Positions 7,793-44,397 of a stretch of 64,000 nucleotides of DNA are shown here, in pieces (the stretch's first letter is position 1; each line of letters begins with the position of its first letter). Below the pieces are notes generated by a model that saw nothing but the letters and a program-made list of their open reading frames with translations, was not told the origin of the DNA and searched no databases. Origin of the DNA: Verrucomicrobiia bacterium (GTDB taxonomy: Bacteria; Zixibacteria; MSB-5A5; DSPP01); assembly GCA_035574275.1 (NCBI GenBank), contig DATLYY010000007.1, forward strand, positions 4,928 through 68,927, given 5' to 3'. A program made the position numbers and the translations under genes.

Positions 7793-8274
7793 AGGGTAAA
7801 CTCCGGCTCTTTTTTCCTTGTACGCCCGGCCAGGTAGAAAAGAACAAAAGCCAAAAGCATGGAATAAACGGCGCCCAAAAGGGAGTAGCGCCCCAGGATA
7901 TACAGCGTCGCGGTGGGGGAAAAACCGGTATCCGCGAGGTGGTACCCCAGTTCGTAAATCACCACGGAGAGGCCGGCGATGATCCCCTTGGAGTAGAAGT
8001 TTTCCAAGAAAAGATTATCCTTGAATCCCCCCAGCCAGTAACCCAGCGTCAGCCGCAAAAGGGTTCCCCATCCCAAAAGTGAGGGATGGAGCACGTCGGT
8101 CAGAAGCCCGGAGACGAAACCGAAGAAAAGCCCCTCCACGGAACCCCGCGTCAAGGCGAAGTAGGCGGTCAAAACAAGGCCGATATCCGGGTGGGCGCCC
8201 CCCACCGCGAGCCAGGACCGGAGGAGGGATTCGTACAAAACCACGGCCAAGAGGCCGGAAATGAAGGCCTTCAC
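7789..8274 (-). CDS. mreD: rod shape-determining protein MreD
   Basis: 161-aa hydrophobic protein between mreC and mrdA. Overlapping start/stop codons. Confidence 0.75.
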   Translation of the reverse strand: MKAFISGLLAVVLYESLLRSWLAVGGAHPDIGLVLTAYFALTRGSVEGLFFGFVSGLLTDVLHPSLLGWGTLLRLTLGYWLGGFKDNLFLENFYSKGIIAGLSVVIYELGYHLADTGFSPTATLYILGRYSLLGAVYSMLLAFVLFYLAGRTRKKEPEFTL

Positions 8275-35014: not shown

Positions 35015-36184
35015 ATGGCGTTTACCGGCAACCTGAATACCGTCGCTTTTTCGGACATTCTGCAGCTGCTTTCCCAAGGGAAGAAGACGGGGGCCTTGGC
35101 GGTCAGCAAGGGGCCTTTGAAAAAAGAGGTCTATTTCCGGAACGGCAACATTGTCTATGCTCTTTCCGCCAATGCCGAGGAGGATTTGCTGGGGAATCTG
35201 CTCCTGAAGCGGGGAAAAATCTCCAAGCCGGATCTGGAGCGGGCCATCTCCCTGCACAAGTCCACCGGCAAAAAGCTGGGGGTCACCTTAATCGAGCTCA
35301 ACTTGTTTTCGCGGGAAGAGATCGTGGCGGCCTTGAAGCTGCAAATCGAGGAGATCGTATACAACCTGTTCGGCTGGAATGAAGGGGAATTCATGTTCTA
35401 TGAAGGGAAAGCCCCGGCGGCCAGCCAGATTTTAACCGAACTGCCCACTTCCTCGGTCATGCTGGAGGGGGCGCGGCGAATCGACGAATGGGTGGAGATT
35501 CAAAAAGCCCTGCCGGCCGCCCATCTGCCCTTAAAGCTTTCCTCCAACCCAAAAGTCCGCGGGGAAGAAGTGACCTTGAGCGTGGACCAACTGGTCGTGA
35601 TGTCCCTGATTGACGGCAGCCGTACCTATCCGGAGGTTCTGCGGGCCTCGCCGATGGGGGAATTTGTAACCTCCAAGGCGTTGCACCAGCTCGTGCAGAG
35701 CGGGCTGGTGGAGGCGCTGCCCAAAAGCCGCTCCCGGCTTTCCTCACGGGAGGAGGAGGAATTGGTGTTTTCGGTCTCCCTGCGGGTTTTTTCCGCCTGC
35801 TTTGCCGTCTTGGTCCGTTTATTCGACAAAAAGGTGGGAAAGAGCTTTTTCCGCCGCCGGCTGCCGACCCCGCAGGAGAAAAAGGGAATCGACTTTTATC
35901 TGGCCTCTTTTTTATACGGGGAGGAGCATTTCAACCAGAACGATTTTTTGAGCCGGCTCTCGGAGCTGCCCAAGGAAATCCGGCTGCACAAGCTTCTGGC
36001 CGGGTTGGGGGCCATTCTGGAGGAAGGACTGGAGGTGGTGCGGCTGGTTTTGGGGGGGGCGGTTTACAAACGGGCCTGCAGCGACATGCGCAAGGAGGCT
36101 GCCGCCATCTTCGCCGAGGAACGGGAACTGGTGGGGAAATACGACCTGGAAACCGAAGTGTACCGGCAGATAAGGAAGGAGTGA
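35015..36184 (+). CDS. DUF4388-like domain protein (first gene of the polarity/T4P locus)
   Basis: 389 aa. N-terminal 'GNLNTVAFSDILQLLSQGKKTGALAV...VYFRNGNIVYA' matches the DUF4388-type domain. Remainder alpha-helical with no recognisable domain. Confidence 0.55.
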   Translation: MAFTGNLNTVAFSDILQLLSQGKKTGALAVSKGPLKKEVYFRNGNIVYALSANAEEDLLGNLLLKRGKISKPDLERAISLHKSTGKKLGVTLIELNLFSREEIVAALKLQIEEIVYNLFGWNEGEFMFYEGKAPAASQILTELPTSSVMLEGARRIDEWVEIQKALPAAHLPLKLSSNPKVRGEEVTLSVDQLVVMSLIDGSRTYPEVLRASPMGEFVTSKALHQLVQSGLVEALPKSRSRLSSREEEELVFSVSLRVFSACFAVLVRLFDKKVGKSFFRRRLPTPQEKKGIDFYLASFLYGEEHFNQNDFLSRLSELPKEIRLHKLLAGLGAILEEGLEVVRLVLGGAVYKRACSDMRKEAAAIFAEERELVGKYDLETEVYRQIRKE

Positions 36185-36596: not shown

Positions 36597-37484
36597 ATGC
36601 TTAATATAGCCGAACTGGACGACCGCATCGCCAAGTGCGAAAAAATTCTGGCGGAAAATCCGAATTCCCAAATTTTTGCCGCCCTGGCGGACGCCCACCG
36701 GCGCAAGGGGCAGTTGGACAAGGCCCTCGAGGTTTGCCGCAACGGACTGAAGCTGCATCCCAACTACGGCTCGGCTCATCTGGTTTTAGCCAAGGTGCAT
36801 ATGGACCGGCAAATGTACGAGTTGGCTGAAAAGGCGCTCGAAGAAGCAATCCGGCTGGACGGTCGCACCCGCGCCACCGAACTCTTGCTTTGCGAGATAT
36901 TCATTCACAAAAAGAAGCTGCCCGAAGCGCTTTCCATTTTGGAGAAGCTGCACATCACCGATCCGGAAAACCAGGAGGTTAAGTATCTGTTGGAGCTCTG
37001 TCGCAAGGAAACGGGAAAAACCCGCCCGACGGCGGAGATCACCCGCCCCAGTTTTTCCGCGCCCGCCCGGCCCGGGTCGAAGCGGGGGGATTCCGACATT
37101 TTTACGCTCGACACCGAGCGGGCGCAGGACTCCGTCATCGGTCCGGAGGAGGCGTTGGACGAGCTTTTTGCCATTCCGGAGGTGGACGCCCTGATGGTGG
37201 TAAACCGGGAGGGGCTCATCATCGACAAGCGTTTCCGCGGTAGCTGGGAGGCCGACAGCCTGGCGGCGGTCTCCGCATCCATTTTCACTGTGGCGGAAGA
37301 CAATCTGGAAAAAGTGGATTTGGGGCAGCTGGAAAAAGTCTGGATTGATGCGGACGGCGTCAGTTTCCTGGCCGTGCGCATGGAAGAAAAGGTCTTGATG
37401 GTGGTGTATCGTCCGGACATCAATTTGGGGGCTTTCAAGATGAAGGTCGGGGCGTTTTTGGATTACGCCCTTTTGGCCGGATAA
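36597..37484 (+). CDS. TPR-repeat / roadblock(LC7)-domain fusion protein
   Basis: 295 aa. The N-terminal about 140 aa are TPR-like helices. The C-terminal about 110 aa ('VDALMVVNREGLIIDKRF...VSFLAVRMEEKVLMVVY') have roadblock/LC7 (MglB-like) topology. Confidence 0.7.
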   Translation: MLNIAELDDRIAKCEKILAENPNSQIFAALADAHRRKGQLDKALEVCRNGLKLHPNYGSAHLVLAKVHMDRQMYELAEKALEEAIRLDGRTRATELLLCEIFIHKKKLPEALSILEKLHITDPENQEVKYLLELCRKETGKTRPTAEITRPSFSAPARPGSKRGDSDIFTLDTERAQDSVIGPEEALDELFAIPEVDALMVVNREGLIIDKRFRGSWEADSLAAVSASIFTVAEDNLEKVDLGQLEKVWIDADGVSFLAVRMEEKVLMVVYRPDINLGAFKMKVGAFLDYALLAG

Positions 37485-37493
37485 GGAGCGACG

Positions 37494-38426
37494 ATGTCAA
37501 AAGAACTTTCCAAAGCGTTGATTCTGGTTTTTTTGTTGGCCGCCGTTCCGATGATCTTCCATCCGGCCGACTTCGGCCTGGAATACGCCGGGTGGGCCGG
37601 CCCCCGGCTTCTGATCGCCGAGGCAATTTTCTACTTTTTGGTTTTCTTCTGGGTCTTTCCGGAAGCCGGAATGGGAAAAAAATTCGGCTTTGCCCTCGGC
37701 ACGCTCGCGTACCGCCTTTTTGCCGGGACGGTTTTGGGCATTTTTTTGGCCATCACCCGCTCGATCCCGCTGGGTGCCGCCCTGCAGCAGGGATGGTACG
37801 GCTATTTCCCCGGTTTTCTTTTGATGAGCATCATTACCCCGTTTTTGCTGAAGGGCATGTGGGCCGCTTCGCTTAAAAAGCCTCGCGCCGCCCGGCCCCA
37901 TGAGCCGGCCGCCCGTCCGGAACCCTCGGCTTCTTCCGTGATTCCGGTCCGCTCCGAAACGGGCCGGCCCCGCCACGAACCGGCGCCGGCGCGCCACGAT
38001 TTGCGGGAAATCAACTTTGACGACGCGTTGGCCTACATCGGGGAGCAGAAAGGGGTTTCGAAGGCCTATTTGGTTGACGAGGAGGGGCTGGTTTTGGCCC
38101 GCTTTGAGGCCGGCGGCACCTGGGAAGATGAGCTCTGGGCGGCTTGGGGGCTGGTTTTGGTTGAAAGAAACAAAGAGCTTGCCGCCCGGGTGGACCAGTC
38201 AAATTTTTCGGCCCTCGAGCTTTCCACCTCCGCCGGCAAGGTGTACGTGCAAAAGGTCTTGGATTTCTATTTGGTGGCCGTGGTCGAGCCCCATGCCGAC
38301 GAGCTGTTGAACGTCCGGCTGGTGCGGGCCTCCGAAATGATCAAACGCCACTGGCAGGAGAAATATGAACCGGTTTTGAAAACCAATCGGGAGGGACACC
38401 ATGTACCAGATCTTAGAGGAGCTTAA
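37494..38426 (+). CDS. membrane-anchored roadblock(LC7)-domain protein
   Basis: 310 aa. N-terminal 4-TM domain, Pro/Arg-rich linker, then a C-terminal roadblock-like domain ('VSKAYLVDEEGLVLARFEAGG...GKVYVQKVLDFYLVAVVEP'). Confidence 0.65.
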   Translation: MSKELSKALILVFLLAAVPMIFHPADFGLEYAGWAGPRLLIAEAIFYFLVFFWVFPEAGMGKKFGFALGTLAYRLFAGTVLGIFLAITRSIPLGAALQQGWYGYFPGFLLMSIITPFLLKGMWAASLKKPRAARPHEPAARPEPSASSVIPVRSETGRPRHEPAPARHDLREINFDDALAYIGEQKGVSKAYLVDEEGLVLARFEAGGTWEDELWAAWGLVLVERNKELAARVDQSNFSALELSTSAGKVYVQKVLDFYLVAVVEPHADELLNVRLVRASEMIKRHWQEKYEPVLKTNREGHHVPDLRGA

Positions 38427-38739
38427 CCGCACCTCCGGCGTCACCGGCAGCATGCTGGTGGGGCAGGACGGCATCGTCATCGCCGCCGATTTGAACACCG
38501 GCGTGGAGGATGACACGGTGGGGGCCTTGGCCGCCGCCATCACGACCAATGTGCAGAAGTCGCTGGAGCGCTTGCGCCAGACGCCGATGAAGCAGGTAAC
38601 CATCGAGGCGGAGCGGGGAAAAATCTTTCTGGCCGACGTGGGAAAGGGGATTTTGGTGGTGACCACCGATCCCCGGGTGAACATCGGGCTGGTGCGGCTG
38701 GAGATTAAAAACGCGGCCTCGCGCCTGGCACTGATGTAA
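38401..38739 (+). CDS. stand-alone roadblock/LC7-domain protein (MglC/MglB-paralogue-like)
   Basis: 112 aa. 'GVTGSMLVGQDGIVIAADL...GKIFLADVGKGILVVTTD' is a canonical roadblock fold. Directly upstream of mglA. Confidence 0.75.
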   Translation: MYQILEELNRTSGVTGSMLVGQDGIVIAADLNTGVEDDTVGALAAAITTNVQKSLERLRQTPMKQVTIEAERGKIFLADVGKGILVVTTDPRVNIGLVRLEIKNAASRLALM

Positions 38740-38747
38740 GGCAGACG

Positions 38748-39818
38748 ATGGTTTCCATCAATTACGCGTTCAAGGAAATCTCCTGCAAGATCGTCTATTA
38801 CGGTCCCGGGCTTTCCGGCAAGACCACGAACTTGCAGTACGTTCATAAAAAGGTGCCCCAGCCGACCAAGGGGGAGCTGATTTCGTTGGCGACGGACGCC
38901 GACCGGACCCTTTATTTTGACTTCCTCCCGATCAATATCGGGTCCGTGGCCGGTTTCACGACCAAGTTTCAGCTCTACACGGTACCCGGACAGGTGTACT
39001 ACAACGCCACCCGCAAACTCGTTTTGCGGGGGGTGGACGGGCTGGTTTTCGTGGCCGACTCCCAGGAATCGAAGATGGAGGAGAACGTCGAGAGTTTGAA
39101 AAATTTGTTGGACAACCTCCAGGAGTATGGCTACAGCTTGAACGAAGTGCCGATGGTCATCCAGTACAACAAACGGGATTTGCCCGGGGCTTTGCCCCTG
39201 GATGTTCTGGAGAAAGCGTTGAACCCGAACGGACTCCCCTCTTTTGAAGCGGTCGCGGTGAAAGGGGACGGGGTTTTCGACACGCTCAAGTGCATCATCA
39301 AAATCGTATTGGAAAAAGCCCGGGCGAAGTCGGAGACGGGGTCCAAAGCCTCCGAAACTGCACCCGCTCCGATGTCGGAGCCGGCTTCGCCGCCGGCGAG
39401 GCAGTCGATACCGGAACCGTTGGAAAGTGGTAGCGAGGAACGGCCCGCACCCCCGCCGCGGCCCAAAATGGAACCGGTCGGCGTCCAGTCGGACTGGTCG
39501 GTCCCCACGGCTTCGGAGCAGTTTCGCCCCGTGCCGGGGCTGTCCAAACCGGCCTCCGCTCCGGCGCCCCTGGAAGGACACCGCCCTGTGGTCGTGCCGG
39601 GTGTGCGTCAGACCTCGGGTTCGGAAGTGGAGCAACGGGCTCGCCAATCGGTCGAACGCCCCAAGCCTTTGGCCGCAGCCGAGCGGCCTTCCCCCGCCCG
39701 GCCGGAATTGAATTTGAAAAACCGCCCCGTTCTGCGCCCCAGCGAGCTGGCGCGCAGCCGGAAGGAAGAAAAGAAAAAAGGTTTTTTTTCGCGTCTGTTC
39801 GGGCTCTTTAAAAAGTAG
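38748..39818 (+). CDS. mglA: Ras-like small GTPase MglA with a long disordered C-terminal tail ending in an amphipathic helix
   Basis: The first about 195 aa align closely to Myxococcus MglA (P-loop 'YYGPGLSGKTTNL', 'DRTLYFDFLP', 'YTVPGQVYY', 'IQYNKRDL'). About 160 extra residues are Pro/Ser/Ala-rich and end in ...RKEEKKKGFFSRLFGLFKK. Confidence 0.88.
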   Translation: MVSINYAFKEISCKIVYYGPGLSGKTTNLQYVHKKVPQPTKGELISLATDADRTLYFDFLPINIGSVAGFTTKFQLYTVPGQVYYNATRKLVLRGVDGLVFVADSQESKMEENVESLKNLLDNLQEYGYSLNEVPMVIQYNKRDLPGALPLDVLEKALNPNGLPSFEAVAVKGDGVFDTLKCIIKIVLEKARAKSETGSKASETAPAPMSEPASPPARQSIPEPLESGSEERPAPPPRPKMEPVGVQSDWSVPTASEQFRPVPGLSKPASAPAPLEGHRPVVVPGVRQTSGSEVEQRARQSVERPKPLAAAERPSPARPELNLKNRPVLRPSELARSRKEEKKKGFFSRLFGLFKK

Positions 39819-39827
39819 GAGGGAATC

Positions 39828-40313
39828 GTGGACGAAAATCTGATCCTCTACGAAGAGGAAATAAGCCGCATCGACAAGGTGCTCTCGCGGCTGATCAAGG
39901 GGGCGGAGGCCAAGTGCGCCCTCCTGGTGGACAAAGACGGGCATTTGATCACCCGCCAGGGGTTCACCCATTCGCTGGACACCACCGCCTTGGCGGCGCT
40001 TCTGGCCGGCAGCTTTGCCTCCACCCGGGAGATCGCCCGGCTGGTGGGGGAACCGGAGTTCTCCGTGCTCTTTCATCAGGGGAAGCGGGACCATATCCAC
40101 ATTTCACTGGTCGGCGAGCGAACCATTCTGGTGGTCATTTTCGACGACCGCACCACCATCGGCATGGTCCGGCTTTACGCCAAGGAGGTGGGGGATGAAC
40201 TCGCCTTGATTTTCCGCGAGGCGAAGGAGAAGGCCAAAAAATCGGTCAAGCCGATTTCCAGCGAATTCTCCAATCAGGCGGAAAGCCGCCTGGACGACAT
40301 TTTCAAGGATTAG
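39828..40313 (+). CDS. mglB: MglB (roadblock/LC7-domain GAP of MglA)
   Basis: 161 aa. Collinear similarity to M. xanthus MglB ('LILYEEE...VDKDGHLITRQG...DTTALAALLAG...ILVVIFDDRTTIGMVRLYAK'). Confidence 0.85.
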   Translation: MDENLILYEEEISRIDKVLSRLIKGAEAKCALLVDKDGHLITRQGFTHSLDTTALAALLAGSFASTREIARLVGEPEFSVLFHQGKRDHIHISLVGERTILVVIFDDRTTIGMVRLYAKEVGDELALIFREAKEKAKKSVKPISSEFSNQAESRLDDIFKD

Positions 40314-40357: not shown

Positions 40358-42052
40358 TTGACGGCCGAATTGGGGGCCTTACTGGTCAAAGCGGGCAAAA
40401 TCACGCAGCAGCAGCTCGCCAAGGCCTTGGAAATCCAGAAACAGACGAACGGCAAGCTGGGCCAGATTCTGGTCCAGATGGGGGCGGTTCCGGACGAAAA
40501 CGAAATTTCCGAATTCGTCGGGCGCCAGCTCAACATCGGGGCTTTGCGTTTGTCGGATTTGGAGCTGAACCCGGAGGTGGTCAAGCTCATCCCGCTGGAT
40601 ATCGCCCGCAAGTTCAACGTTATCGCCATCTCGAAATTGGGCAAAACGCTGGTCGTTGCGATTTCCGACCCGAACAACATCTACGTTTTGGACGCCATCA
40701 AGTTCATCACCGGCTGCACGGTACAGCCGGTCATCTCCCCCGAAAAGGCGATTCAGAAAGCGATCGAGACCCAGTACCAGGACTCCGGCGGGTTGAAGGA
40801 AATTCTGGACAAAATCGAGGGGGACAGCCTCGAAGTTATCGACAGCGGCGAGGAGACGATCACCGAGCAGGACCTGCAAAGCCAGGTGCAGGACAAACCG
40901 TTGGTCAAACTGGTGGACCATCTCATCGCCGATGCCATCCGCAAGGGGGCTTCCGACATTCATATCGAATCGTACGAAAAACGAATCCGGGTGCGCTACC
41001 GCATTGACGGCGCCCTGCAGGAGATGGCTCCCCTGCCTTTTCGTTACCGGGCGGCCATTGTCTCCCGCGTCAAAATCATGGCGGACCTGGACATCTCCGA
41101 GCGGCGGCTGCCGCAGGACGGACGCATCAAGGTGAAAATCGGCGACCGGACGGTCGATCTGCGCGTCTCCGTTCTGCCCACCATTTTTGGCGAAAAAGTG
41201 GTCATGCGTATTTTGGATTCCAAAAGCTTGATGGTCGATCTGACCCGGCTGGGGTTCGAGGAGCAGGCCTTAAAGCAGTTCGAAGCGGCCATCAATCAGC
41301 CCTACGGCATCATTCTGGTCACCGGGCCGACCGGCTCCGGTAAAACCACATCGCTTTACTCGGCCTTGAAAACCATCAACACCACGGACATCAACATTAT
41401 GACCGCCGAGGATCCGGTGGAGTTCAACTTCGACGGCATCAACCAGGTTTTGGTCAAGCCGGACATCGGGCTCACCTTTGCCGCCGCGCTACGCTCCTTT
41501 TTGCGCCAGGACCCGGACGTCATACTGGTTGGTGAGATTCGCGACGGCGAGACGGCGGAAATCGCCATCCGCGCGGCCTTGACGGGGCATTTGGTTTTCT
41601 CCACCCTGCATACCAACGACGCTCCTTCTTCCATAAGTCGACTTATCGATATGGGGATTCCGAACTATCTGGTGGCATCGGCCACCAAGATGATCGTCGC
41701 CCAGCGGATGGTGCGCAAAATCTGCCAGTTCTGCAAGGTAGAGGTGCCGGTCACCAAAGAGGTGCTGTTGAAACTGGGGGTAACGGAAAAAGAGGTGGGA
41801 TCGTTCAAGGTTTTTGAAGGGAAGGGCTGTCAGGAGTGCGGGCAGACCGGTTATTCCGGCCGAAGCGGCATTTTTGAGGCGATGCCGATCACTCCGGCCA
41901 TTGAAGAGATGATCTTAAAACAGGCCTCCACGGCGGCATTGCGCGAGCAGGCGATAAAAGAGGGGATGCTGACTTTGCGGATGGCCGGTCTGATGAAAAT
42001 CAAGCAGGGGCTCACTTCCGTGGAAGAGGTTTTGGCGGAAAGCTCGGTCTAA
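40358..42052 (+). CDS. pilB: type IV pilus assembly ATPase PilB (GspE family)
   Basis: 564 aa. N-terminal T2SSE_N domains, Walker A 'GPTGSGKTTSLY', Asp/His boxes and a tetracysteine motif (CQFC...CQEC). TTG start after AAAGGAGGG. Confidence 0.88.
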   Translation: MTAELGALLVKAGKITQQQLAKALEIQKQTNGKLGQILVQMGAVPDENEISEFVGRQLNIGALRLSDLELNPEVVKLIPLDIARKFNVIAISKLGKTLVVAISDPNNIYVLDAIKFITGCTVQPVISPEKAIQKAIETQYQDSGGLKEILDKIEGDSLEVIDSGEETITEQDLQSQVQDKPLVKLVDHLIADAIRKGASDIHIESYEKRIRVRYRIDGALQEMAPLPFRYRAAIVSRVKIMADLDISERRLPQDGRIKVKIGDRTVDLRVSVLPTIFGEKVVMRILDSKSLMVDLTRLGFEEQALKQFEAAINQPYGIILVTGPTGSGKTTSLYSALKTINTTDINIMTAEDPVEFNFDGINQVLVKPDIGLTFAAALRSFLRQDPDVILVGEIRDGETAEIAIRAALTGHLVFSTLHTNDAPSSISRLIDMGIPNYLVASATKMIVAQRMVRKICQFCKVEVPVTKEVLLKLGVTEKEVGSFKVFEGKGCQECGQTGYSGRSGIFEAMPITPAIEEMILKQASTAALREQAIKEGMLTLRMAGLMKIKQGLTSVEEVLAESSV

Positions 42053-42102
42053 GCGCTTCAGAAGCAACGCATTTTGCCGATACTCTTTAAGGAGGGAAAA
42101 TC

Positions 42103-43182
42103 GTGGTCACGTTAAAGGATTTACTGGATTTGATGGTAAAAAGAGGGGCCTCCGATCTGCATTTGACCGTCGGCACGCCGCCCCAGATACGGGTGGACGG
42201 CAAGCTCACCAAGTTGGAAGGATACGACATCCTCACACCCGAGGAGACCAAAAAGCTGGCCTACAGCATTATGAACGAAAAGCAGCGCCAGCGCTTCGAG
42301 GAAAAATCGGAACTGGATTTGTCGTTCGGCATCGAGCAACTTTCCCGCTTTCGGGCCAACGTCTTTGTGCAGCGGGGGAATGTGGCGATGGCTTTGCGCC
42401 AGATCCCGTTCAAAATCCGCAGCTTTGAGGAGTTGGGCGTCCCCAAGGTGGTATCGGAATTGGCCAATTTACCGCGCGGGCTGGTTTTGGTCTGCGGCCC
42501 GACCGGCAGCGGCAAATCCACCACGCTGGCGGCTTTAATCGATAAAATCAACCGGGAGCGGCGCGATCACATCATCACGGTGGAAGACCCGATCGAATAT
42601 TTGCACCGCCACCAGTCCTGCCTGGTCAACCAGCGGGAGGTCGGGGCGGATACCCAGACCTTTGCCTCTGCGTTGAAATACGCCCTGCGGGAGGATCCGG
42701 ATGTGGTGTTGATCGGCGAGATGCGGGATTTGGAAACCATCGAGGCGGCCTTGACCATTTCCGAGACCGGACATTTGGCTTTCGCTACCCTGCACACCAA
42801 TTCCTGTGCAGAAGCGATCACCCGTATCGTGGACGTTTTTCCGACCAATCAGCAGGAACAGGTGAGGGTGACTCTTTCCTTTGTTCTGCAGGCTGTGGTC
42901 TGCCAGCAGCTTTTGCCCAAAATCGGCGGCGGCCGGGTGATGTGCATGGAAATCATGGTTTGCACGCCGGCCATTCGGGCGCTCGTCCGGGACGATAAAA
43001 TTCATCAAATTTACAGCCTGCTTCAAGCCGGGCAGAAGTACGGGATGAAAACGATGAACCAGTCCCTGGCGGAGCTCTATCTGGCCCGCAAAATCACCCA
43101 AGGGGACGCTTTGGCCCGCTGCTCCAACCAGCAGGAGTTCGCCGATCTGGTCGGGCGTAAAATGGAACTGGCGGCGGTCTAA
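42103..43182 (+). CDS. pilT: twitching-motility retraction ATPase PilT
   Basis: 359 aa. 'GPTGSGKSTTLAA' Walker A and PilT family features. GTG start after GGAGGG. Confidence 0.88.
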   Translation: MVTLKDLLDLMVKRGASDLHLTVGTPPQIRVDGKLTKLEGYDILTPEETKKLAYSIMNEKQRQRFEEKSELDLSFGIEQLSRFRANVFVQRGNVAMALRQIPFKIRSFEELGVPKVVSELANLPRGLVLVCGPTGSGKSTTLAALIDKINRERRDHIITVEDPIEYLHRHQSCLVNQREVGADTQTFASALKYALREDPDVVLIGEMRDLETIEAALTISETGHLAFATLHTNSCAEAITRIVDVFPTNQQEQVRVTLSFVLQAVVCQQLLPKIGGGRVMCMEIMVCTPAIRALVRDDKIHQIYSLLQAGQKYGMKTMNQSLAELYLARKITQGDALARCSNQQEFADLVGRKMELAAV

Positions 43183-43197
43183 CACAGGGGAGAAGCG

Positions 43198-44397
43198 ATG
43201 CCGGTATTTGAGTACAAGGGAAAATCGATGGGGGGCGCCGCGGTAGCCGGCGAGTTGAAGGCCAAAAACCGCGCCGAACTGGAACGGATTCTCCGCTCCA
43301 ACCGGATTCTGGTCACTTCCGTGACCAAAAAAGCGTCTGAAATCAAGCTTCCCACGTCCAACCGTATCCGGAAAATCGACATTTCCCGTTTCACCCGGCA
43401 GTTCGCCACGATGATCGGGGCCGGGCTGCCGATGGTGCAGTGCTTGGATATCTTGGCCCAGCAGATGGAATCTCTGGCTTTTCGCAAAATTATCGCGGAA
43501 GTGCGGGATTCGGTCTCTTCCGGTTCCACCCTGGCGGAGGCCTTGGGAAAGCACAAAAAAGTTTTTGATGAACTGTACTGCAACATGGTTGAAGCGGGAG
43601 AGGTCGGTGGCGCATTGGATACCATTCTGGTCCGGTTGGCTACTTACCGGGAGAAAGCGGACGCTTTGAACCGCAAGGTAAAAGGGGCGATGGTCTATCC
43701 GGCGGTCATTATGATCGTGGCCGCGGGCGTTACCTTTGCCATGCTTACCTACATCGTGCCGATTTTTGCAAAGATGTTCGCCAATTTGGGGACGGAACTG
43801 CCGGCCCCCACGCGGATGGTTTTGAAAATCAGCAACTTTATCCGGGATTTTTTCTGGTACGGCGTGACCTTGCTCGTGGTCGGTGCCTTCGTCTTCAGCC
43901 GCTGGATCAAGACGGACAAGGGGCGGCTGGCTTTCGACAAGTTTAAACTGAAGATACCCTTGATCGGGTCCTTGATCCGCCGCACGGCCGTAGCCCGGTT
44001 CACCCGGACGCTGGGCACTTTGATCTCCTCCGGTGTTTCCATTCTGGACGCGTTGGATACGACCGCAAAGACGGCTGGCAACCGGGTCGTGCATGACGCC
44101 ATCAAAAAATCGGTTTTGTCGATTGCCGAAGGGGAAACCATCACGCAGCCCCTAAAGGAGTCGGGCGTTTTCCCGCCGATGGTAATCCAGATGATTTCCG
44201 TGGGGGAAAAAACCGGCGGATTGGATGAGATGCTGCAAAAAATTGCCGATTTCTATGACGAAGAGGTGGATGCCGCCGTTTCGGCCTTGACCTCCATCAT
44301 CGAGCCGGTCATCATCCTTTTTATGGGTGTGGTTATCGGCGGCATTCTGATTGCCATGTATCTGCCGATGTTCGACATCGTGGGCGCCATCAAGTAG
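43198..44397 (+). CDS. pilC: type IV pilus platform protein PilC (GspF family)
   Basis: 399 aa. Two T2SSF repeats and three TM segments. Confidence 0.85.
   Translation: MPVFEYKGKSMGGAAVAGELKAKNRAELERILRSNRILVTSVTKKASEIKLPTSNRIRKIDISRFTRQFATMIGAGLPMVQCLDILAQQMESLAFRKIIAEVRDSVSSGSTLAEALGKHKKVFDELYCNMVEAGEVGGALDTILVRLATYREKADALNRKVKGAMVYPAVIMIVAAGVTFAMLTYIVPIFAKMFANLGTELPAPTRMVLKISNFIRDFFWYGVTLLVVGAFVFSRWIKTDKGRLAFDKFKLKIPLIGSLIRRTAVARFTRTLGTLISSGVSILDALDTTAKTAGNRVVHDAIKKSVLSIAEGETITQPLKESGVFPPMVIQMISVGEKTGGLDEMLQKIADFYDEEVDAAVSALTSIIEPVIILFMGVVIGGILIAMYLPMFDIVGAIK

Follow-up and report, generated by a model that had tools for sequence, protein, structure and literature searches.

The window analysed here is a 64,000-nt stretch of a Zixibacteria contig (DATLYY010000007.1, assembly GCA_035574275.1, positions 4,928 to 68,927), and the genes described below lie on its forward (+) strand. 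An ORF at 38748..39818 starts with ATG and encodes a 356-aa protein ending in RKEEKKKGFFSRLFGLFKK. It lies in a conserved cassette of genes. At the head of the cassette is a PATAN (DUF4388) protein (35015..36184) with an MshEN-type c-di-GMP-binding motif (PF14332, E=9.6e-33; NF053729 at 46.8 bits, above its cut-off of 38), followed by a 295-aa TPR and Roadblock fusion protein (36597..37484), which matches TPR families and has Robl_LC7 at residues 184-271. Next comes a 310-aa integral-membrane Roadblock protein (37494..38426) with at least 3 N-terminal TM helices (hydropathy segments 5-23, 39-57 and 69-87), a Pro/Ala/Arg-rich linker and then a Roadblock domain at residues 183-263, although the Robl_LC7 score of 19.6 bits is below the Pfam cut-off of 23. 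Immediately upstream of the ORF is a 112-aa Roadblock/LC7 protein (38401..38739; Robl_LC7 E=7.6e-16), which is not an MglB, since its best PDB hits are generic Roadblock proteins and MglB is matched only at E~3e-3. Downstream, mglB (39828..40313, 161 aa) starts with GTG 10 nt after the stop of the ORF, is preceded by GGAGGG, and encodes the cognate Roadblock-fold GAP (Robl_LC7; 6izw_B, M. xanthus MglB, E=7.7e-38 over residues 3-160). The type IV pilus motor genes follow directly (40358..44397), namely pilB (40358-42052; T2SSE and MshEN domains), pilT (42103-43182; T2SSE) and pilC (43198-44397; T2SSF). Scans of the window for tRNAs and Rfam families found nothing, so there was no RNA marker for taxonomy, but PBP2 homologues at 88% and 84% identity are from 'candidate division Zixibacteria'.

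The first 195 residues of the protein (38748..39332) form the G domain. Residues 3-192 align to MglA of Myxococcus xanthus (5ymx_A, E=2.7e-78) and of Thermus thermophilus (3t12_A, E=2.1e-74). According to the definition of Wuichet and Sogaard-Andersen (PMC4316618), it is a canonical group-1 MglA: the P-loop G19PGLSGKTT27, the intrinsic arginine finger Arg53 next to the G2 threonine Thr54, the G3 motif T78VPGQ82 in place of DxxGQ and the G4 motif N141KRD144 are all present and are invariant in an alignment of 63 sequences, and the gene is coupled to an MglB GAP. GTP binding and hydrolysis, its stimulation by MglB and a role in polarity were not assayed. Among the features tested, the protein departs from the definition only in length, as the 2014 census excluded sequences longer than 240 aa. 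This is an operational filter and not a biochemical criterion, so the protein is an MglA with an appended tail. The chains matched in PDB are 195-203 aa long, thus about 160 residues are extra.

What does the additional region look like? Residues 196-326 (39333..39725) make up a hypervariable linker rich in Pro, Ser, Ala and Glu (P 20%, S 12%, E 11% and A 11% over residues 196-335). Column entropy is 2.4-3.4 bits here, against less than 1.5 in the G domain. AlphaFold2 with the 63-sequence alignment gives pLDDT below 50 over residues 240-345, block means of 50-57 over 201-240, and no secondary structure from 204 to about 309, so the linker is predicted to be disordered. Inside it lies a conserved short linear motif, F259-R-P-V-P-G264 (39522..39539), with the family pattern RP[YFV]PG. 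It is present in 81 of the 120 closest relatives, always 58-98 aa (median 80) from the C-terminus, and in 0.2% of shuffled tails. Conservation rises again from residue ~331. The pre-anchor segment P327-K344 (39726..39779; PVLRPSELARSRKEEKKK) corresponds to P-x-M-A-P-S-L-R-R-R...KK[RK] in the family and includes a polybasic cluster, and P327 is at least 90% conserved. The protein ends from G345 to residue 356 (39780..39815) in GFFSRLFGLFKK, an amphipathic helix by prediction that resembles the membrane-targeting sequence (MTS) of MinD.

A terminal segment that is not predicted to be amphipathic or helical had been named beforehand as an outcome that would refute the idea, but the terminus is amphipathic. 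The last 11 residues have a helical hydrophobic moment of 0.72 (Fauchere-Pliska scale, 100 degrees), which only 2% of shuffles reach, while the E. coli MinD and FtsA MTSs score 0.55 and 0.61. On a helical wheel F346, F347, L350, F351, L353 and F354 fill a 160-degree arc, and K344, G345, S348, R349, G352, K355 and K356 fill the opposite arc. The sequence is identical at 7 of 10 residues to KGFLKRLFGG, the E. coli MinD tag quoted in PMC5471200. Ten residues are too few to separate homology from convergence, and the carrier proteins have unrelated folds, so the comparison does not settle whether the two sequences share descent. The isolated last 50 aa is predicted to be helical over residues 331-355, with a mean pLDDT of 84 for the last 10, although this single-sequence prediction has a helix bias. 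The full-length model gives only a weak 5-residue helix at the terminus (pLDDT ~51-53) and low confidence in the switch regions, and as it shows no confident docking of the tail on the G domain, no conclusion on autoinhibition is drawn. In the family the core of the motif starts 8-14 residues (mode 9) before the stop in 142 of 145 members, and 11 residues before it in the window protein. Its positions 0, 1, 4 and 5 are F in 92%, F/W/L in 98% (F/W in 84%), L in 92% and F in 94%, while the polar positions vary among K, R, S and G.

Is the tail an artefact of annotation or assembly? It could be suspected, since characterised MglAs are 195-203 aa and the region is GC-rich enough to give long spurious ORFs, such as a 633-aa antisense ORF at 38199..40100, which was rejected as a real gene because all homology is on the + strand. 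However, a frameshift, a missed stop or a fusion with a downstream small ORF is refuted by the comparative data. The identical protein is found on an independent Logan assembly (SRR7882662). Every one of the 120 closest relatives is 324-475 aa long, and 117 of them keep the reading frame through a variable linker of at least 120 aa to the same C-terminal motif, with the consensus KK[RK]GF[FW][KR][RK]LFGxK. Relatives at 66-94% identity keep the frame despite indels, and the linker shows an excess of third-codon-position changes (58 against 32 and 17 for positions 1 and 2, in the comparison with L085). In addition, mglB has its own ribosome-binding site after the stop. Absence of the tail from closely related genomes had been named in advance as an outcome that would point to an artefact, but the tail is present in all close relatives.

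To test whether the C-terminal motif is more than chance, it was defined as at least 3 K/R followed by PhiPhixxPhiPhi within the last 24 aa. This motif-based classification with a shuffle control was used because a first classifier of C-termini under-called amphipathic endings. The motif is present in 117 of the 120 closest relatives and in 0.1% of shuffled tails, and it occurs 166 times in the last 24 aa and 8 times elsewhere in tails. In the fetched loci plus the window it is found in 36 MglA ORFs and in 7 of about 1,150 other ORFs. The linker is never shorter than 120 aa across 145 anchored sequences (median 152), which indicates selection for reach rather than mere tolerance. A search with the G domain alone recovered the same form, as 149 of 150 representatives are longer than 230 aa. 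This proportion is inflated, since fast-evolving tails split clusters at 50% identity and the hits are ranked by similarity to a zixibacterial G domain. Similarly, 69 of 80 loci are tailed, but they were ranked by tblastn to a tailed query, which favours tailed proteins, so the count is not an unbiased frequency. The nearest relatives of the window (65-94% identity) were not among these 80 loci.

The gene order PATAN / TPR-Roadblock / membrane-Roadblock / Roadblock / MglA-tail / MglB / PilB / PilT / PilC is conserved in Zixibacteria, Ignavibacteria and one Terriglobales genome. In the 28 AH-type loci (L001-L028) mglB is adjacent to mglA, a 55-73% identical copy of the 112-aa Roadblock protein lies upstream of mglA, and the membrane Roadblock protein keeps its position in L001-L023 and L025-L028. 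The TPR-Roadblock and PATAN genes are also conserved in the cassette. In all 28 of these loci pilB directly follows mglB, with pilT and pilC following wherever the contig is long enough, and this is not seen in other clades. In Planctomycetota, MglA homologues with the same mglB/Roadblock/PATAN neighbours replace the helix with a C-terminal transmembrane anchor. In these homologues, placed by their G-domain sequence in the Planctomycetota block, the extreme C-terminus after a long linker holds a hydrophobic TM helix of about 20 aa preceded by basic residues, in 35 of the top 150 representatives and in about 19 GTDB loci. It should be noticed that this clade picture comes from an NJ ordering without bootstrap. 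A PEP-CTERM or sortase-type signal was considered for these proteins and rejected, since there is no signal peptide and the basic residues precede rather than follow the TM. Other MglA clades end in motifs that look like protein-binding peptides (ELRPYVPKKK, FxDxxPF) or in a beta-rich C-terminal segment, thus a tail does not always mean a membrane.

The preliminary description had claimed a near-canonical MglA with a tail of about 160 residues of Pro/Ser/Ala-rich low-complexity sequence and a MinD-like terminus, and this observation is confirmed. Its interpretation, that the helix on a flexible tether would give nucleotide-independent or nucleotide-gated membrane association, is supported, as every element that could be checked held. 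Three refinements can be made. The tail is not a peculiarity of one gene but belongs to a large, multi-phylum family with a conserved operon; the TM helix in Planctomycetota favours the nucleotide-independent tether over gated binding; and the tail is not only a passive tether, as it holds the second conserved motif RP[YFV]PG. The preliminary description had also taken the feature to be undescribed, as far as its author knew. Searches for an MglA tail or MTS found no published description, although subscription journals were largely missing from the literature searched, and a July 2026 preprint still labels bacterial MglA 'cytosolic'.

Then how might the protein work? The explanation we favour, with fair though not full confidence, is that it is a bona fide MglA polarity GTPase tethered, most likely permanently, to the inner face of the cytoplasmic membrane by its own C-terminus. 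The polybasic stretch (RSRKEEKKK) would attract anionic lipid head-groups, and the 12-residue amphipathic helix would lie in the bilayer interface, as the MinD MTS does. The linker of ~130 residues, with an estimated r.m.s. reach of about 9-10 nm and a contour length of about 50-57 nm, would confine the GTPase to a membrane-proximal shell in which it can still move and dock. Within that shell it would cycle between GTP and GDP states under MglB and the three other Roadblock proteins of the cassette, one of which is itself membrane-embedded. In the GTP state it would license or position the PilB/PilT/PilC motor, with c-di-GMP input through the PATAN protein, and the RP[YFV]PG island is probably a docking site for one of these partners. 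The architecture, its conservation, the amphipathicity, the disorder prediction, the synteny and the TM-anchored homologues come directly from the analysis, whereas lipid binding, constitutive tethering, the pilus output and the partner of the linear motif are inferred from them. The TM-anchored homologues give independent support for the membrane as the selected function: a TM anchor cannot cycle, so permanent tethering is compatible with MglA function. In M. xanthus, MglA acts through a TPR protein to bring PilB to the membrane-embedded pilus machine (PMC11580455), and PATAN regulators bind the T4P motor in Synechocystis (bioRxiv 10.1101/2021.06.11.447907), but the link to T4P rests here on gene order only. 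There is no experimental evidence of lipid binding, and membrane localisation was not measured. Moreover, a single E. coli MinD MTS is too weak to hold a monomer on the membrane. Consistent with that, tandem copies were used in PMC5471200 and in the ArcoA work of the 2026 preprint. A monomeric MglA with one helix might therefore bind only transiently.

There is a rival that we consider unlikely but not negligible, in which the helix is a weak, conditional anchor and binding is gated as in MinD or Arf. MglA would then be mostly cytosolic and attach stably only when avidity or unmasking is provided, for example by GTP-dependent complex formation with dimeric MglB or other Roadblock partners, or by release of the tail from the G domain, creating an on/off membrane cycle that drives polarity. 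The motif is nearly the MinD MTS, which works in MinD through ATP-dependent dimer avidity, single copies of such helices are often insufficient, and the two conserved islands upstream of the helix (PxMAPSLRRR and RP[YFV]PG) could mediate masking or partner binding. However, an unconserved, disordered linker of at least 120 aa is an unlikely conduit for nucleotide-state information, related homologues use an irreversible TM anchor, and no confident docking of the tail on the G domain is predicted. With 6 hydrophobic residues and a polybasic cluster of 6-7 residues, this helix should also be stronger than that of E. coli MinD. Much less likely still is that the C-terminal peptide is a protein-docking motif, hooking MglA to a partner such as the TPR-Roadblock protein, the membrane Roadblock protein or PilB/PilM, in the way that FtsZ joins a globular GTPase through a disordered linker to a C-terminal peptide that binds FtsA or ZipA. 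Other MglA clades do end in clearly non-amphipathic conserved peptides such as DDEIELRPYVPKKK and SPFIDLQPF, a TPR protein, a typical peptide binder, is in the cassette, and RP[YFV]PG shows that the tail carries docking-type motifs. Yet the sequence is a textbook MTS, near-identical to one proven to bind lipid, and its replacement by a TM helix is explained by membrane anchoring but not by a specific peptide-protein interface. The hydrophobic positions also tolerate F/W/L/I swaps, which is typical of lipid-facing rather than protein-facing surfaces.

Compared with MglA of M. xanthus and T. thermophilus (5ymx, 6izw, 3t12), the protein shares a homologous G domain, the catalytic signature, an adjacent MglB and a link to type IV pili. 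Those proteins are soluble and positioned by partner proteins, while this one has the linker, the RP[YFV]PG motif, the polybasic cluster and the terminal helix, and is embedded in a PATAN / three-Roadblock / pilBTC cassette. With the MTSs of MinD and FtsA it shares the position at the extreme C-terminus, the PhiPhixxPhiPhi core flanked by basic residues and an equal or higher hydrophobic moment. It differs in being attached to a monomeric Ras-like GTPase rather than a dimerising ParA/MinD ATPase or an actin-fold protein, through a linker of at least 120 aa rather than a few residues. It is also longer and more hydrophobic, has a stronger polybasic preface, and is probably not nucleotide-gated. 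Eukaryotic Ras/Rho/Rab GTPases such as K-Ras4B follow the same logic of G domain, hypervariable flexible region, basic cluster and hydrophobic anchor at the very C-terminus, with an anchor type that varies between clades (AH or TM here; farnesyl, geranylgeranyl or palmitoyl there). Here the anchor is a genetically encoded helix or TM segment instead of a prenyl group, there is no CaaX box, the linker is about 10 times longer and no GDI-like extractor is evident, so the resemblance is analogy and not demonstrated homology of the tails. ArcoA, the archaeal Ras-superfamily GTPase of the Arco oscillator, and Arf/Sar1 and SR-beta are small GTPases that work on a membrane through their own amphipathic helix (ArcoA, Arf) or TM segment (SR-beta), and deletion of the ArcoA helix makes it cytosolic and abolishes oscillation. 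Their anchors are N-terminal and adjacent to the fold, and that of Arf is nucleotide-coupled, while here the anchor is C-terminal and far from the fold; the 2026 preprint explicitly contrasts ArcoA with 'cytosolic' MglA. FtsZ also combines a GTPase fold, a long disordered and poorly conserved linker under length constraint and a short conserved C-terminal element connecting it to the membrane, but its fold is tubulin-like rather than Ras-like, and it reaches the membrane indirectly through FtsA, ZipA or SepF, whereas the terminal element here looks like a direct lipid binder.

A broader scenario can be offered only tentatively. Self-anchoring through a hypervariable C-terminal tail may be the common, possibly ancestral, state of group-1 MglA across the FCB-group phyla sampled here (Zixibacteria, Ignavibacteria, Fibrobacterota), Acidobacteriota and Planctomycetota, and the soluble ~195-aa Myxococcus/Thermus proteins of the textbook model would then be the exception. 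In that case bacteria evolved the same design principle as eukaryotic Ras/Rho/Rab proteins, including Roadblock-fold regulators on the same membrane. MglA polarity circuits in most phyla would be two-dimensional, membrane-bound reaction-diffusion systems whose clade-specific tail endings (amphipathic helix, TM helix, ELRPYVPKKK, FxDxxPF, a beta-rich C-terminal segment) act as address labels.

MglA is the paradigm for small-GTPase-driven polarity in bacteria, and all mechanistic models (MglB GAP, RomR/RomX, SgmX, and so on) assume a freely diffusing cytosolic switch that is captured at the poles. The comparative data show that a length filter in the reference census hid a large part of MglA diversity, and the conservation of the tailed form across several little-studied phyla suggests that many bacteria run this switch on the membrane, as eukaryotic Ras-type GTPases do. 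The motif is short, transplantable and present in cultured genera with tailed MglAs (Ignavibacterium, Fibrobacter, planctomycetes), so the family offers a testable system. If the form found here is membrane-tethered, then in several large and mostly uncultured phyla the switch diffuses in two dimensions, its effective concentration near the pilus machine is set by the tether, and polar capture, GAP access and effector reach must work differently. It would also close a conceptual gap with eukaryotes, where membrane anchoring through a hypervariable C-terminal region is central to Ras-superfamily function and Roadblock-fold regulators (Ragulator/LAMTOR) sit on the same membrane.

An ATG-initiated open reading frame of 356 aa is found at 38748..39818 (+), ending ...RKEEKKKGFFSRLFGLFKK, exactly as given in the preliminary description, whose observation of an MglA extended by a long tail with a MinD-like end was confirmed. 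Residues 3-192 align end to end with the crystallised MglA of M. xanthus (5ymx_A, E=2.7e-78) and of T. thermophilus (3t12_A, E=2.1e-74), while those chains are only 195-203 aa long. All hallmarks of group-1 MglA as defined in the reference census (PMC4316618) are present, namely the P-loop G19PGLSGKTT, the intrinsic arginine finger R53 next to T54, the TVPGQ G3 motif (T78-Q82) and NKRD (141-144), and they are invariant in an alignment of 63 sequences. The stop codon is followed 10 nt later by a GGAGGG ribosome-binding site and the GTG start of a 161-aa protein, which is a full-length MglB orthologue (6izw_B, E=7.7e-38). The N-terminal half is therefore an ordinary MglA with its GAP. A 633-aa antisense ORF (38199-40100, -) spans the whole mglA gene, but it has no homology support and is judged to be a by-product of GC-rich coding sequence on the opposite strand.

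Is the tail a genuine part of the protein? Residues 196-335 are composed of 20% Pro, 12% Ser, 11% Glu and 11% Ala. Across the query plus its 120 closest database relatives, the column entropy is below 1.5 bits in the G domain, rises to 2.4-3.4 bits between residues 191 and 330, and falls again over the last ~25 residues. AlphaFold2 with a 63-sequence alignment gives pLDDT <50 over residues 240-345 (50-57 over 201-240), with no secondary structure from 204 to about 309. The linker is nevertheless translated: against relatives at 86% and 66% protein identity the frame is kept through indels, and substitutions are enriched at third codon positions, with 58 against 32 and 17 for positions 1 and 2. 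The identical protein is also called on an independent Logan assembly of run SRR7882662. A frameshift or assembly artefact, which the preliminary description had put forward as the reading that would overturn it, is excluded.

The other point on which that description had staked itself was whether the terminal segment is amphipathic and helical. The last 11 residues have a helical hydrophobic moment of 0.72 on the Fauchere-Pliska scale, a value reached by only 2% of shuffles, while the E. coli MinD MTS scores 0.55 and the FtsA MTS 0.61. On a 100-degree wheel, F346, F347, L350, F351, L353 and F354 occupy a 160-degree arc, and K344, G345, S348, R349, G352, K355 and K356 occupy the other side. 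KGFFSRLFGL shares 7 of 10 residues with KGFLKRLFGG, the E. coli MinD tag used experimentally to tether proteins to membranes (PMC5471200). A peptide-only AlphaFold model, which is a single-sequence prediction with the usual helix bias, makes residues 331-355 one helix, with pLDDT 84 over the last ten.

The tailed protein is a family and not a single case. All of the 120 best hits in a collection of 5.8 billion proteins are 324-475 aa long, and 117 of them end in a basic cluster followed by a PhiPhixxPhiPhi core within the last 24 residues. Shuffled tails satisfy this test 0.1% of the time, and in real tails the pattern occurs 166 times in the last 24 residues and 8 times elsewhere. Anchoring 145 sequences on the core gives the consensus P-x-M-A-P-S-L-R-R-R-x-E-x-K-K-[RK]-[GS]-F-[FW]-[KR]-[RK]-L-F-[GS]-Phi-K-COOH, in which the hydrophobic positions are 92-98% conserved. 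The linker is never shorter than 120 aa, with a median of 152 and a maximum of 463. Among all ORFs of at least 150 aa in the window and the retrieved loci (numbered with the prefix L), the motif marks 36 MglA proteins and only 7 of about 1,150 others, most of them spurious frames. A non-MglA ORF of 296 aa on the + strand of L034, a Chitinivibrionales locus, also ends in a polybasic amphipathic motif (...KIKNEKGILSRFFNRSRNSS) similar to the MglA ending of that clade; it was not identified. A second island of conservation, RP[YFV]PG (F259-RPVPG-264 in the window), is present in 81 of 120 close relatives. It always lies 58-98 residues (median 80) from the C-terminus and appears in 0.2% of shuffled tails. 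The tail therefore carries at least one docking-type motif besides the anchor.

The gene order around mglA is a PATAN/DUF4388 protein with an MshEN-type c-di-GMP motif, a small membrane protein, a TPR-Roadblock fusion, a Roadblock protein with at least three N-terminal TM helices, a 112-aa Roadblock protein, MglA with its tail, MglB, then PilB, PilT and PilC, and finally a PAS histidine kinase (PilS-like). The same order is found in relatives at 66-86% identity. It is also found in 28 GTDB loci labelled Zixibacteria, Ignavibacteria/Ignavibacteriales, one Terriglobales, and unclassified bacteria, and all 28 of those loci carry the amphipathic ending. The PATAN protein at the head of the cassette (35015-36184, +) matches NCBIfam NF053729, the 'cyclic di-GMP-binding domain, MshE-related', at 46.8 bits (cut-off 38), at residues 59-110 inside the PATAN region. 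As PilB downstream also has an MshEN domain, c-di-GMP may enter the module at two points. The Roadblock/LC7 protein with the TM helices (37494-38426, +), whose Pfam score of 19.6 is below the cut-off of 23, has its own Pro/Ala/Arg-rich linker, and its position is conserved in L001-L023 and L025-L028. It would be a membrane-resident Roadblock partner next to a membrane-tethered GTPase, reminiscent of Ragulator/Rag. Farther from the cassette, PBP2 (MrdA; TIGR03423; 5969..7792, -), an elongation-type transpeptidase, is 88% and 84% identical to proteins named 'candidate division Zixibacteria'. Its presence is compatible with a rod-shaped cell, which is relevant for any pole-based polarity model; the ORFs next to it were not examined. 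A SufS-type cysteine desulfurase (1005-2267, +) matches the C-terminal part (profile 216-621 of 623) of the family 2A encapsulin cargo model NF041166 at 716.6 bits, below the cut-off of 800, and the N-terminal cargo-targeting region appears to be absent.

How do other MglA proteins end? To this end, a representative library of 1.84 billion proteins was searched with the G domain alone, which returned 6,975 hits, 2,417 of them at E<=1e-30. Of the best 150 representatives, 149 are longer than 230 aa. It should be noticed that this count, as well as the 69 tailed proteins in 80 GTDB loci, is biased, since hits are ranked by similarity to a zixibacterial sequence and tails inflate cluster numbers. 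The endings fall into classes that follow the G-domain ordering, although the tree is an NJ ordering without bootstrap. There are 40 polybasic amphipathic helices in at least three blocks, one of which is a Chitinivibrionia/Fibrobacterota-type block ending ...PxNPK..KGF[FL]xKLF, and 35 C-terminal transmembrane helices of about 20 hydrophobic residues preceded by basic residues. The remaining classes are the Fibrobacter-type ...DDEIELRPYVPKKK, an ending ...SPFIDLQPF..., a beta-rich ...VLRLVLEIRV...RAA ending which may be a folded domain, and Sumerlaeota-type endings. In Fibrobacter (L051, L052, L054, L056, L064, L066-L068, L076, L079; library proteins P0176, P0261) the tails are about 120 aa long and end in a conserved acidic-then-basic peptide, DDEIELRPY[VI]PKKK, which is not amphipathic and is probably a protein-docking motif; no mglB was detected within these loci. 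Among the other tail classes (P0193, P0199, P0237, P0251, P0209, P0198; P0191, P0218-P0232, P0240, P0247, P0259, P0264), the one already given as ...SPFIDLQPF... ends more generally in ...SPF[IL]DLQPF.../F.DP[FY], and the one with the beta-rich segment has tails of 400-600 aa. In the GTDB loci the TM class belongs to Planctomycetota, in about 19 loci (L029, L030, L032, L033, L036, L039, L043, L046, L057, L058, L060, L061, L065, L070, L071, L074, L075, L078, L080, with the MglA ORF starting near locus position 8001 in most; also proteins P0140, P0157, P0182-P0188 and others). These proteins look like tail-anchored small GTPases, in which the helix follows a long low-complexity linker; mglB lies downstream and Roadblock and PATAN genes are nearby, but pilBTC is not. 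Myxococcota and Gemmatimonadota proteins are short, 198-211 aa.

The protein is a member of group-1 MglA by every sequence criterion except the operational length limit of the census, under which proteins longer than 240 aa were left out. That limit removed 39 of the 488 members of the MglA subclade, which explains why such tails were overlooked. Searches of the literature found no description of a tailed or membrane-anchored MglA, although a prior mention cannot be ruled out since most subscription-journal papers were outside their reach. Both modules are known, while their combination is undescribed and widely conserved. The anchor would work like a MinD/FtsA MTS, but ten residues are too few to claim common descent. 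The overall design resembles the hypervariable region plus polybasic/lipid anchor of eukaryotic Ras/Rho/Rab proteins, which is an analogy. A prokaryotic precedent for a helix-anchored Ras-superfamily switch now exists in archaeal ArcoA, whose helix is N-terminal and is required for membrane binding and oscillation; the same preprint calls bacterial MglA 'cytosolic'.

There is a further question, what the tail is for. Two lineages place different membrane anchors at the same spot, an interfacial helix in one and a bilayer-spanning helix in the other, both at the extreme C-terminus after a long disordered linker. This is best explained by selection for membrane tethering of the G domain. Because a TM anchor cannot cycle, it also argues that permanent tethering is compatible with MglA function. 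The architecture, its conservation, the amphipathicity, the predicted disorder, the synteny and the TM substitution rest on direct analysis of the sequences, while binding of the polybasic stretch and helix to the anionic inner leaflet, which was not assayed, and the steps that follow from it are inferred. The main uncertainty is whether a single helix holds a monomer on the membrane, as MinD-type helices are often used in tandem; this one, however, is more hydrophobic and has a stronger basic preface. We are fairly confident that the tail is a genuine membrane tether, and to this extent the interpretation offered in the preliminary description is supported.

In the mechanism proposed, the linker would confine the G domain to a shell near the membrane while allowing docking. 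By Kohn scaling, 150 residues have an Rg of about 3.9 nm, an r.m.s. end-to-end distance of about 9.4 nm and a contour length of about 57 nm. RP[YFV]PG is a candidate docking site for a cassette partner, and the TPR domain is an obvious candidate. MglB and the three additional Roadblock proteins, one of them membrane-embedded, would set the nucleotide state, and MglA-GTP would promote engagement of PilB with the pilus base. The last step has parallels: in M. xanthus a pathway from MglA through the TPR protein SgmX brings PilB to the membrane-embedded pilus machine (PMC11580455), and in Synechocystis PATAN regulators bind the T4P motor (bioRxiv 10.1101/2021.06.11.447907).
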